Assembly: GCF_050920415.1 (NCBI RefSeq)
Contig: NZ_CP169309.1
DNA length: 64,000 nucleotides
Direction: 5' to 3' (one strand)
Source of the DNA: Escherichia coli
GTDB lineage: Bacteria > Pseudomonadota > Gammaproteobacteria > Enterobacterales > Enterobacteriaceae
This document shows, one piece after another, positions 29,166-32,235 of this stretch. The notes beneath the pieces are model-generated. The model saw only the letters and a program-made list of their open reading frames with translations. It did not search any database and was not told the DNA's origin. Both the position numbers and the translations under genes were made by a program. Within the stretch, counting starts at the first letter, position 1. The number at the start of each line of letters is the position of its first letter.

Positions 29166-29270
29166 GCCGGATGCGGCGCAAACGCCTTACCCGGCCTACA
29201 TGACATTGCAATTTATTGAATCTACATGATTTTGTAGGCCGGATAAGGTGCGCAGCACCGCATCCGGCAA
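29166..29270. repeat. REP pair (BIME) between yigE and uvrD
   Basis: gccggatgcggcgcaaacgccttacccggcctac ... gtaggccggataaggtgcgcagcaccgcatccggca. Confidence 0.8.
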
Positions 29271-29272
29271 CG

Positions 29273-31435
29273 TTATACCGTCTCCAGCCGGGCGTAAGCC
29301 GCCACCAGCCATTTAATACCCTGGCCCTGGAATGCCACCTGCAAACGGCTATGCTCACCGCTGCCTTCCATATTGACGATGGTGCCTTCACCAAACTTGG
29401 CGTGGCGTACGCGCTGGCCGAGCTTGTAGCCGCTGTCGTTCTCGACCATCGGCGTACCCATCCGTTGATGGCTGACCGGGCGGCTTACCGTAGCGCGTAA
29501 ACGCACCTCTTCCACACACTCTTCCGGCAGCTCACCAATAAAGCGCGACGGGCGATGGTAAACCTCTTTGCCATACAGACGGCGGGTTTCCGCGTAGGTC
29601 AGTGTCAGTTTCTGCATCGCGCGGGTTACGCCAACGTAGGCCAGACGGCGTTCTTCTTCCAGACGCCCGCCTTCATCCAGCGACATCTGGCTTGGGAACA
29701 TGCCCTCTTCCATACCAACAATAAACACCTGCGGGAATTCCAGACCTTTCGCCGAGTGTAGCGTCATCAGCTGTACCGCATCCTGCCAGGTATCCGCCTG
29801 CCCTTCACCTGCTTCCAGTGCCGCATGGGAGAGGAACGCCTGCAGCGGCATTAAATCTTCGTCTTCTTCGTTGTAGCTGAACTGGCGCGTTGCCGTCACC
29901 AGTTCCTCTAAGTTTTCGATACGCGTCTGGCCTTTTTCGCCCTTCTCCTGCTCGTACATGGTGCGCAGGCCGGAGTCTTTAATTACCCGGTCAGTCTGTA
30001 CATGCAGCGGCATATCGGCAGTTTCTTGCGCTAAGGCGTCGATCAGTTCCATAAACCGTTGCAAAGCGCTGGCAGCACGCCCGGCGAGCGCTTTTTCCTG
30101 CAATAATTCGCGGCACGCCTGCCAGAGTGTTAACTGGCGATCGCGCGATGTCTGACGTACCACGTCCAGCGTCCGGTCACCAATACCCCGCGTTGGCGTA
30201 TTCACCACGCGCTCAAAGGCCGCGTCGTCGTTACGGTTGGCAATCAGGCGCAGATACGAGAGCGCATCTTTGATTTCCTGGCGTTCGAAGAAGCGCATCC
30301 CGCCATAAATACGGTACGGCATACTGGCTTGTAATAACGCCTCTTCCAGCACGCGCGACTGGGCGTTGCTGCGATAGAGAATGGCGCACTCGGCGAGCGC
30401 CCCGCCCTTGTCCTGCCAGGTCTTGATGCGGTTAACCACAAAACGCGCTTCGTCGAGTTCGTTAAAAGCGCAATAGAGGGAAATCGGCTCACCGTCCGCG
30501 CCATCGGTCCACAACTTTTTACCCAAACGCCCGTTGTTGTTTTCAATCAGGGCGTTCGCCGCGCTCAGGATATTGCTGGTAGAGCGGTAGTTTTGCTCCA
30601 GACGGATAGTTTCGGCACCGGGGAAATCATTGAGGAAACGCTGAATATTCTCTACCTGCGCCCCACGCCAGCCGTAGATTGACTGGTCGTCATCGCCAAC
30701 AATCATCACTTTGCCAGTATCGCCCGCCAGCAGGCGGATCCACGCGTACTGAATGTTGTTGGTATCCTGGAATTCGTCCACCAGGATATTGGTAAAACGT
30801 TCGCGGTAGTGTTGCAGGATATGCGGCTTGTTAAGCCACAGTTCGTGGGCGCGTAGCAGTAGTTCAGCGAAGTCCACCAGGCCCGCGCGGTCACACGCTT
30901 CCTGATACGCCTGGTACACCTTCTGCCAGGTCTGCTCCACCGGATTACCGTAGCTTTGAATATGATGCGGACGCAGCCCTTCATCTTTCTGGCTGTTGAT
31001 GTACCACATTGCCTGGCGCGGCGGCCACTGCTTCTCGTCGAGGTTCATGGCTTTGATCAGACGCTTAAGCAGGCGCAGCTGGTCTTCGCTGTCGAGGATC
31101 TGGAAATCCTGCGGCAGGTTGGCGTCCATATGGTGCGCACGCAGCAGACGGTGTGCCAGCCCGTGGAAAGTGCCGACCCACATACCGCCCTGGCTGGTAC
31201 CCATCAGTTGCCCGATACGATGGCGCATTTCCGCCGCCGCTTTGTTGGTAAATGTCACCGCCATAATCGAGTACGGCGAGCAGTTTTCCACGCTCATCAG
31301 CCAGGCGATACGATGCACCAGTACGCGCGTCTTACCACTGCCCGCGCCCGCCAGCACCAAAAGGTTGCTGCGTGGCGCGGCCACCGCTTCGCGCTGTTTG
31401 TCATTAAGGCTGTCGAGCAGGTAAGAAACGTCCAT
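29273..31435 (-). CDS. uvrD: UvrD DNA helicase II, 720 aa
   Basis: Track frame extends to 31621; start set at MDVSYLLDSLNDKQREAVAAPRSNLLVLAGAGSGKTRV... Confidence 0.95.
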   Translation of the reverse strand: MDVSYLLDSLNDKQREAVAAPRSNLLVLAGAGSGKTRVLVHRIAWLMSVENCSPYSIMAVTFTNKAAAEMRHRIGQLMGTSQGGMWVGTFHGLAHRLLRAHHMDANLPQDFQILDSEDQLRLLKRLIKAMNLDEKQWPPRQAMWYINSQKDEGLRPHHIQSYGNPVEQTWQKVYQAYQEACDRAGLVDFAELLLRAHELWLNKPHILQHYRERFTNILVDEFQDTNNIQYAWIRLLAGDTGKVMIVGDDDQSIYGWRGAQVENIQRFLNDFPGAETIRLEQNYRSTSNILSAANALIENNNGRLGKKLWTDGADGEPISLYCAFNELDEARFVVNRIKTWQDKGGALAECAILYRSNAQSRVLEEALLQASMPYRIYGGMRFFERQEIKDALSYLRLIANRNDDAAFERVVNTPTRGIGDRTLDVVRQTSRDRQLTLWQACRELLQEKALAGRAASALQRFMELIDALAQETADMPLHVQTDRVIKDSGLRTMYEQEKGEKGQTRIENLEELVTATRQFSYNEEDEDLMPLQAFLSHAALEAGEGQADTWQDAVQLMTLHSAKGLEFPQVFIVGMEEGMFPSQMSLDEGGRLEEERRLAYVGVTRAMQKLTLTYAETRRLYGKEVYHRPSRFIGELPEECVEEVRLRATVSRPVSHQRMGTPMVENDSGYKLGQRVRHAKFGEGTIVNMEGSGEHSRLQVAFQGQGIKWLVAAYARLETV

Positions 31436-31493
31436 TGGCACCGCCGCGTAAAAATAGGTTGGGCGGAGAAGCGCAACGCCCTCCGCCAAAAAG

Positions 31494-31509
31494 CTGGGTA
31501 TATATACAG
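31494..31509 (-). promoter_or_regulatory. LexA (SOS) box upstream of uvrD
   Basis: Minus-strand CTGTATATATACCCAG, matching CTGT-N8-ACAG consensus, about 60 bp upstream of uvrD ATG. Confidence 0.7.
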
Positions 31510-31518
31510 ATTTGCTGA

Positions 31519-32235
31519 TTATATCAGCGAGGTCAGAGATGCCAACCGGGAAATTTCCAGATGCGGGAGTAAACGGCTGTCCCAGGTTTGCATCAGATCG
31601 CCATTTTCCGGTCTGATCCAACAGGCCTGCATTCCGCTGCGAATTGCCCCACCCACGTCAGTGGTGAGATCGTCCCCGACATGTAAGATCTCGCCGATCG
31701 GCACGTTGAGTTTTTCCGCCGCCAGGAAGTACATATCGCTGAACGGTTTTGAGCGCCCGTGCGGGCCAGCACGCAGCACAAACTCAAAATAATCCCCCAA
31801 ACCAAACAGCTCCGGCTGGGCGTTACCGTTGGTGATCGCCACCAGCGGCCATTTCTTCGCCAGCTGTTTTAAGGTGTCGTGGGTTTGCTGCGGAACGTCG
31901 ATCCGGCTACGCCATTTGGCAAAGTTGATCATTGCCGCGTGTGCGCCTGCACTGGCTTCTTCTGCGCTCAGCCCGGCGTCAAGCATCGCTTGTTCTATTG
32001 AGCGAAAACGCCAGCGCGTCACATCATGATAAATCTCGGGTTCCGCTTCCCGTACCGCCTGACGCAGACGTTGCAGATCTTCATTCTGGAAGCTGCGCAG
32101 CGCCGGATGGTAATTTTGCACAAAGGTAAGCGCCTCCTGCTCAGTGCGCAAAATCACCGGACGGTTATCGTAAAGGGTATCATCCAGGTCAAAGGTGAGC
32201 GCCGAGATGCGCCCCAAAGGCCGGTAAAAACGCAT
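31519..32235 (-). CDS. yigB: YigB HAD-family FMN phosphatase, 238 aa
   Basis: [28 protein letters not shown]... Confidence 0.9.

Follow-up and report, generated by a model that had tools for sequence, protein, structure and literature searches.

Operator and leader hairpin at the yigB-uvrD junction of Escherichia coli: a LexA-controlled promoter followed by a probable partial terminator

Introduction

The closest described system is the uvrD region itself. The title of the study by Easton & Kushner (1983; NAR 11:8625-8640) names both lexA repressor control and attenuation of uvrD transcription and, as far as that title goes, organism, gene and sequence are the same as here and the object itself is no different. 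The operator and the attenuator of uvrD are already known: the elements have been in print since 1983, and a genome-wide mapping of the RNA ends followed in 2023. The present analysis adds to the 1983 description a modern transcription start site, in vivo 3′-end coordinates, a comparison of 80 species, the non-canonical geometry of the terminator and a resemblance to REP elements. Mildly new are the turnover of the hairpin among relatives, its REP-like character and its probable dual role as terminator of yigB and attenuator of uvrD.

Other known elements resemble parts of the locus. Gammaproteobacterial LexA operators follow the consensus TACTG(TA)5CAGTA. The uvrD box shares with them the CTG-N10-CAG framework, an alternating AT spacer and a location over the transcription start of a DNA-repair gene, but its right half reads CCAG rather than ACAG, its flanks depart from the consensus and its heterology index of 8.5 goes with weak repression and about 2-fold induction. 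Intrinsic terminators and leader attenuators, such as those of pyrBI, pyrE, trp and his, likewise consist of a GC-rich stem-loop in the leader, with a U-run nearby and 3′ ends just downstream. In contrast to these attenuators, uvrD has a 7-nt non-U spacer between the stem and U5 and lacks both an antiterminator/anti-antiterminator alternative and a leader peptide, and its hairpin also appears to end the upstream operon. REP and BIME elements are, like the uvrD hairpin, imperfect GC-rich palindromes of about 30 nt that contain an internal mismatch and lie just past a stop codon. The arms of the uvrD hairpin have diverged from them, CAAC replaces CTAC and repeats elsewhere were not detected at the sensitivity of megablast.

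The UvrD helicase is needed constantly, for mismatch and excision repair, and the combination of a weak operator with a fixed throttle in the leader would give a high basal expression with a modest SOS induction. For the annotation of terminators and REP elements, the interest lies in a hairpin that keeps its place as its sequence turns over, and in one hairpin serving two transcription units, a consequence of the downstream promoter being buried in the upstream gene. Termination in vitro at the dyad symmetry of the uvrD leader was reportedly seen already in the early work.

The yigB-uvrD junction

The window, which is the whole 64-kb stretch of DNA analysed here, represents in this region the E. 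coli chromosome. The 401 bases around the site are found with 95-100% identity in 5425 of 5426 complete E. coli genomes, at a place annotated yigB | uvrD, and the 136 bases that comprise promoter, leader and start codon are base-for-base the same as in K-12 MG1655. Published MG1655 coordinates were converted through the uvrD ATG, which is 3,997,983 in MG1655 and 31435 in the window (minus strand, +77). All control elements of the junction lie on the minus strand. The coding sequence of yigB occupies 31519..32235 (minus strand; ORF list, translation and RefSeq annotation of the identical E. coli sequence) and that of uvrD, encoding DNA helicase II of 720 aa, occupies 29273..31435 (minus strand; translation and RefSeq annotation). 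The Shine-Dalgarno-like GGCGGUG read from the sequence ahead of the uvrD ATG (31439..31445, minus strand) is presumably the ribosome-binding site of the gene. The uvrD frame stays open for 62 codons 5′ of the ATG, so that a TTG at 31621 opens an ORF of 782 aa (29273-31621, minus strand). An N-terminal extension of UvrD from this TTG was rejected because the differences in leader length among relatives are not multiples of three and the sequence ahead of the ATG is unconserved as protein, and the open frame looks like a chance feature of the sequence.

The comparison covered 80 loci, from Escherichia to Alteromonas, obtained with residues 1-312 of UvrD as the query of a single scan and set so that the uvrD ATG stands at position 1501 in each (individual loci are given below by their L numbers). 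In 39 loci of the Enterobacterales type yigB lies directly upstream, co-oriented, and ends 42-188 nt before the ATG. The promoter hexamers are conserved in place in these loci, as is the sequence (G/A)CGGTGC before the uvrD ATG.

Promoter scanning of 1.4 kb yielded a single promoter, TTGGCA-16-TATAAT, with 11 of 12 matches, a 16-nt spacer and TG ahead of the -10. Its -35 hexamer TTGGCA (31540..31545, minus strand) is kept in the Enterobacterales loci, where its -10 hexamer TATAAT (31518..31523, minus strand) appears as (C/G/T)TATAAT. The promoter (31518-31545, minus strand) is embedded in the end of yigB: the last yigB codons carry it, with the -35 falling within them, and the yigB stop TAA (31521-31519, minus strand) lies inside the -10 hexamer, of which it forms a part. 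This overlap is kept in all 39 Enterobacterales loci. The transcription start, an A at 31511 (minus strand), corresponds to MG1655 position 3,997,907, listed as 'Nearby TSS' in Supplementary Data 4 of a study of RNA 3′ termini (PMC10687069), which quotes it from the dRNA-seq of Thomason 2015. It falls exactly 7 nt past the -10 hexamer, resulting in a 5′ UTR of 76 nt. The uvrD promoter has been found to respond early to UV (PMC5999292).

The LexA operator

The LexA operator, or SOS box, CTGTATATATACCCAG spans 31494..31509 (minus strand, +3 to +18) and was identified by consensus match and conserved position. It agrees with the 16-mer consensus CTG(TA)5CAG at 14 of 16 positions and is the sole site within three mismatches of it in the 64-kb window, where shuffles lead one to expect 0.08 such sites (at least one occurred in 7 of 100 shuffles). 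The looser pattern CTGT-N8-ACAG with one mismatch was found at chance level (20 sites against 18.8 expected), indicating that it is the AT-rich spacer that gives the uvrD box its specificity. The box starts 8 nt past the -10 hexamer and overlaps the region of the transcription start. Among the classical SOS genes that depend on LexA, uvrD is entered with a heterology index of 8.5, placing its box in the weaker half of the classical SOS boxes, and AZT induced the gene 2.1-fold, with a dependence on LexA cleavage (lexA3) of 1.7-fold (PMC11228462). The uvrD box is real, and of moderate rather than high strength. An earlier note on this DNA had called it a good SOS box. Its place proved exact to the base and its match to the consensus is close, but 'good' is generous for an index of 8.5 and an induction of about 2-fold. 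The LexA dependence that the same note had assumed agrees with the literature, in which uvrD stands in the list of classical SOS genes and its promoter is UV-responsive.

A CTG-N10-CAG motif lies directly past the -10 hexamer in 36 of the 39 Enterobacterales loci and takes the form TTG-N10-CAG in the other three; related boxes also precede uvrD in Vibrionaceae and Alteromonadales. Among loci L041-L079 (Vibrionaceae and relatives) the left half of the box is ATG, TTG or GTG instead of CTG, for example ATGTATAAATAACCAGT. Their box lies 9-23 nt upstream of the ATG (1501), almost touching it, with no hairpin, and yigB is usually absent upstream.

A second CTG-N10-CAG motif, mostly CTGATATAATCACCAG, covers the -10 hexamer in 13 of the 39 Enterobacterales loci (L004-L007, L010, L012, L013, L017, L019, L023, L030, L036 and L038). 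In the loci where both motifs could be placed, the second precedes the main box by 20-22 nt, most often 21. Judged by motif and spacing, a tandem LexA operator in these 13 loci is possible. The counterpart in E. coli is broken (CTGATATAATCAGCAA, window 31526-31511).

The leader hairpin in E. coli

Between the box and the uvrD ATG, the RNA is predicted to fold into a stem-loop at 31462..31487 (minus strand, +25 to +50), and the same structure is given in Supplementary Data 3 of PMC10687069. Its outer stem is formed by GGCGGAG (31487-31481) and CTCCGCC (31468-31462), with a 12-nt interval between them. The hairpin comprises 11 pairs in total: the 7-bp outer stem, a G.U pair, a bulged U and an inner GCG/CGC closed by a UUG loop. 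With a predicted energy of -17.9 kcal/mol it has a z of -3.1, and none of 200 shuffles folded as well. Only 18 distinct GC-rich perfect 7-bp hairpins exist in the window, and a random 76-nt interval contains one in about 2% of cases. The 81-nt whole leader is not unusually stable (z = -0.11), which locates the stability signal in the hairpin.

Two segments were folded, the 63-nt leader and a 116-nt piece that extends into the early coding region, and the hairpin alone was shared by their minimum-energy and centroid structures. The AU-rich RNA of the box is left unpaired by both centroids and by the fold of the 63-nt leader, and neither segment was predicted to form an antiterminator alternative. 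No leader peptide signal was found in the uvrD leader. A scan of 30900-32100 against Rfam (E <= 10) returned no family at the leader and a lone chance snoRNA match inside yigB. The 5′ arm of the hairpin, GGCGGAG (31481-31487), is nearly equal to the Shine-Dalgarno-like GGCGGUG (31439-31445), both on the minus strand. Pairing of the 3′ arm with the Shine-Dalgarno sequence is possible in principle and was set aside as unfavoured in the predicted folds.

Within the species the element hardly varies: over the 70 nt that hold box and hairpin, 5365 of 5425 E. coli genomes show 99% identity or more to the window. The GTDB representative of E. coli carries a G-to-A change that creates a C.A mismatch in the outer stem. 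E. albertii has five substitutions between the -35 and the ATG, four of them within the hairpin (one makes a G.U pair and two fall in the loop), with promoter, LexA box and U-run unchanged. The leaders of both variants are still predicted to fold, at -15.3 and -14.8 kcal/mol, respectively.

Leader hairpins in relatives

The stretch from the box to the ribosome-binding site measures 11-136 nt in the Enterobacterales loci and is mostly unalignable between genera. A leader stem-loop of -8 kcal/mol or stronger is nevertheless present in 30 of these 39 loci, with differing sequences, and in 25 of the 30 the stem-loop starts at most 8 nt from the box or shares the final bases of the box. Three leaders are too short for folding; the other 36 proved on average more structured than dinucleotide shuffles: the mean z was -1.95, p was below 0.05 in 18 of the 36, and a Wilcoxon test over loci that are not phylogenetically independent gave p ~6e-10. 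Textbook terminators occur in some relatives, for example in L036 (a long stem followed by TTTTTTGTTTTT), L014, L018/L023 and L027, and at least four T in the 10 nt past the stem were found in only 11 of the 30 hairpin-bearing loci.

Hairpins were lacking in six Enterobacterales leaders (L007, L017, L024, L032, L033 and L039) and in all of the more distant relatives, whose leaders are mostly short, including L040, L044 and L046, which retain yigB. On this comparative evidence, the enterobacterial leader hairpin is recurrent and apparently selected for structure; it is dispensable, since several Enterobacterales and all more distant relatives do without it.

RNA 3′ ends at the hairpin

The mapping of transcript ends published in 2023 (TRS study, PMC10687069, supplementary tables) places an RNA 3′ terminus on the plus strand of MG1655 at 3,997,957-3,997,969, with dominant positions 3,997,962/963. 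In the window this zone of in vivo termini is 31449..31461 (minus strand, +51 to +63), the dominant ends being 31456/31455 (+56/+57). The structure printed for the terminus is exactly the leader hairpin, with the same -17.9 kcal/mol, and termini just past the hairpin occur in several data sets. The readthrough statistic at the terminus, for which 0 means full readthrough, is 0.63-0.90. The study assigns the terminus to yigB, as its 'Primary' end, gives a 3′ UTR of 64 nt and notes a start site nearby (PMC10687069). In the same data, read starts number about 0.2 per position within the yigB coding region, against 0.42-0.52 past the start site. This higher density suggests that transcripts from the uvrD promoter, too, seem to contribute to the 3′ ends past the hairpin. 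No 3′ end for uvrD/yigB, or at 39979xx in the region, appears in the curated Term-seq tables (Adams et al. 2021), an absence that thresholds or low expression may account for.

By its geometry, the E. coli leader hairpin is not a canonical intrinsic terminator. Instead of a U-tract 0-2 nt past the stem, 7 nt (CAACCUA) intervene before a run of five U (31454-31450, minus strand); spacer and run both lie inside the zone of 3′ termini. A scan for consensus terminators did not call the hairpin either, and its four plus-strand calls all fall within coding sequence. Moreover, a 3′ terminus mapped by sequencing looks the same whether the polymerase stopped there or an exonuclease trimmed the RNA back to a stable hairpin.

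The earlier note had proposed a stable hairpin GGCGGAG-N12-CTCCGCC between the box and the ATG that could act as an attenuator. Coordinates and sequence of the hairpin were exact, and the predicted energy bears out its stability. The start mapped by dRNA-seq at 31511 lies upstream of the hairpin, so that the hairpin belongs to the transcript. As to attenuation, the idea matches the published description of the locus and the 3′ termini found directly after the hairpin, but the element departs from a canonical terminator, nothing indicates that attenuation is regulated, and the hairpin also serves, or is annotated, as the 3′ end of the yigB transcript.

The spacing of the U-run can be read in another way. 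The stem ends at 31462 and the run at 31454-31450 lies 8-12 nt downstream, so the hairpin might be an element for pausing, with RNA polymerase stalling at the U-run about 11 nt downstream in a geometry like that of the his pause, or for the tuning of translation, setting the accessibility of the ribosome-binding site, for example by keeping its CUCCGCC arm off the Shine-Dalgarno GGCGGUG, and not a terminator. A U-tract directly past the stem is missing in most relatives, their stems typically end 17-28 nt ahead of the ATG even though the hairpin sequences differ, and the GGCGGAG arm resembles the Shine-Dalgarno sequence, all of which agrees with such a function. We consider it unlikely. Stable 3′ ends accumulate in vivo, which a transient pause should not yield in 3′-end libraries of total RNA, the predicted folds keep the hairpin closed with no sequestration of the Shine-Dalgarno sequence by the 3′ arm, and a search for experimental pause data returned none.

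Control of uvrD in two layers

Promoter, operator, hairpin and RNA ends are best explained by a control of uvrD in two layers, in which a LexA-controlled promoter is very probably followed by a leader hairpin that acts as a partial terminator. A sigma-70 promoter in the last yigB codons would start transcription at 31511, where LexA bound to the box at +3 to +18 would block initiation or escape, and the RecA-stimulated cleavage of LexA after DNA damage would relieve the repression. A box of moderate strength would leave basal expression of uvrD substantial and limit the induction to about 2-fold. Every transcript that crosses the leader, whether begun at the uvrD promoter or reading through from the dapF-yigA-xerC-yigB operon, would form the hairpin at +25 to +50, and a large share of these transcripts would end 1-13 nt past it. 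Acting as a partial terminator, the hairpin would both close the upstream operon and cap the output of uvrD, which amounts to attenuation. We infer that termination, not trimming, generates the 3′ ends, and that both transcript populations stop there. With the uvrD promoter inside yigB, any terminator of yigB must sit in the uvrD leader, and a shared element is almost forced.

Attenuation in this model is most likely constitutive rather than responsive to a signal, as neither a competing antiterminator fold nor a leader peptide can be made out. Non-canonical terminators are the kind most sensitive to elongation factors. The non-canonical geometry of the uvrD hairpin would, on that general ground, suit a conditional attenuation, in which termination at the hairpin is modulated during SOS or by a trans-acting factor and thus forms a second regulated layer. 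The variation of the readthrough statistic between data sets (from 0.63 to 0.90) and the word 'attenuation' in the title of 1983 are in line with it. We nevertheless judge conditional attenuation very unlikely: a competing RNA fold is absent, the upstream part of the leader being AU-rich operator sequence, a leader peptide signal is absent as well, and the overall induction of uvrD, about 2-fold, is small. The turnover of the hairpin sequence among genera, several of which lack a hairpin, likewise speaks against a specific site for a ligand or factor.

Regions of Rho-dependent termination have been mapped at MG1655 3,996,822, inside xerC, and at 4,000,389, antisense to yigE and just past uvrD (Adams et al. 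2021). The region in xerC, which is upstream of yigB, could limit the upstream transcription that reaches the uvrD leader.

Resemblance of the hairpin to REP elements

When the hairpin and its flanks were aligned to the E. coli REP consensus GCCGGATGCGGCGTGAACGCCTTATCCGGCCTAC, a score of 10 was obtained (p ~0.002-0.003); the same score was reached by 9 of 5000 mononucleotide shuffles and by 14 of 5000 random hairpins that preserved the palindrome. Searches with the REP consensus allowing three mismatches did not pick up the leader hairpin site. The feature table of MG1655 has no REP feature at the site, but it contains none even at a canonical REP. The outer arms GGCGGA/TCCGCC compare with GCCGGA/TCCGGC in REP, and the terminal tag GTAG/CTAC is missing: E. 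coli has CCCAAC where REP has GCCTAC, and the homologous units of L003, L010 and L011 end in CTAC. By megablast, which cannot detect diverged 30-nt repeats, the 70-nt segment occurs at a median of one place per genome.

At the orthologous site, L003, L010 and L011 carry a pair of REP units. The first of these is colinear with the E. coli hairpin, TTTTTGGCGGATGGCGCTACGCTTATCCGCTCTAC of L003 being, for example, the counterpart of TTTTTGGCGGAGGGCGTTGCGCTTCTCCGCCCAAC in E. coli, and the second is a canonical inverted REP ending in CCTAC. The pair, found at about 1390-1470 in these Enterobacter/Pluralibacter-like loci, is inverted and BIME-like, and it lengthens the distance from box to ATG to 109-110 nt. 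The Salmonella uvrD box lies 105 nt from the ATG (PMC8072944), which suggests that the Salmonella uvrD leader holds a similar insert with a REP pair. From alignment and colinearity, it is plausible that the E. coli leader hairpin is a degenerate relic of a REP element.

This resemblance gives weight to a further reading, according to which the hairpin is mainly a REP-type element of the 3′ end of the yigB message, a barrier to 3′-to-5′ exonucleases and perhaps the terminator of the operon. Its position in the leader would then follow from the uvrD promoter being embedded in yigB, and any effect on uvrD would be a by-product. The annotation of the terminus as 'Primary' yigB end with its 64-nt 3′ UTR (PMC10687069) fits this reading, as do the alignment that beats the shuffles, the colinearity with the first unit of the REP pair and the frequency of canonical REPs in the window, one of which lies just after uvrD. 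The dominant 3′ end, located before the U-run, is also where trimming to the base of the hairpin would leave it. Against these points stand the CAAC in place of the tag CTAC and the outer arms off the consensus, the single copy of the element at megablast sensitivity, the 1983 title, which itself reports attenuation of uvrD transcription, and the rise of the read density past the uvrD start, by which transcripts from the uvrD promoter seem to feed the 3′ ends. A primarily REP-type role at the yigB end is thus possible, and we hold it with less than even confidence. It is compatible with control of uvrD in two layers, from which it differs mainly in what it takes to be the primary role.

Both views can be combined in a bolder proposal, that of a domesticated REP-type palindrome which ends the dapF-yigA-xerC-yigB operon and throttles uvrD, and in which, in addition, either the throttle is conditional (relieved by SOS, or sensitive to the action of NusA, NusG or UvrD on RNA polymerase) or the attenuated leader RNA of about 56 nt from the LexA-controlled promoter is a functional SOS-induced small RNA. 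We regard this whole chain as remote.

Five canonical REPs were found elsewhere in the window. A canonical REP with two mismatches lies at 29166-29199 (matched on the plus strand), shortly after the uvrD stop (29273). An RNA 3′ terminus at MG1655 4,000,255-260, about 29163-29158 in the window, follows directly after the REP downstream of uvrD (PMC10687069), which indicates that the uvrD message ends at this REP hairpin.
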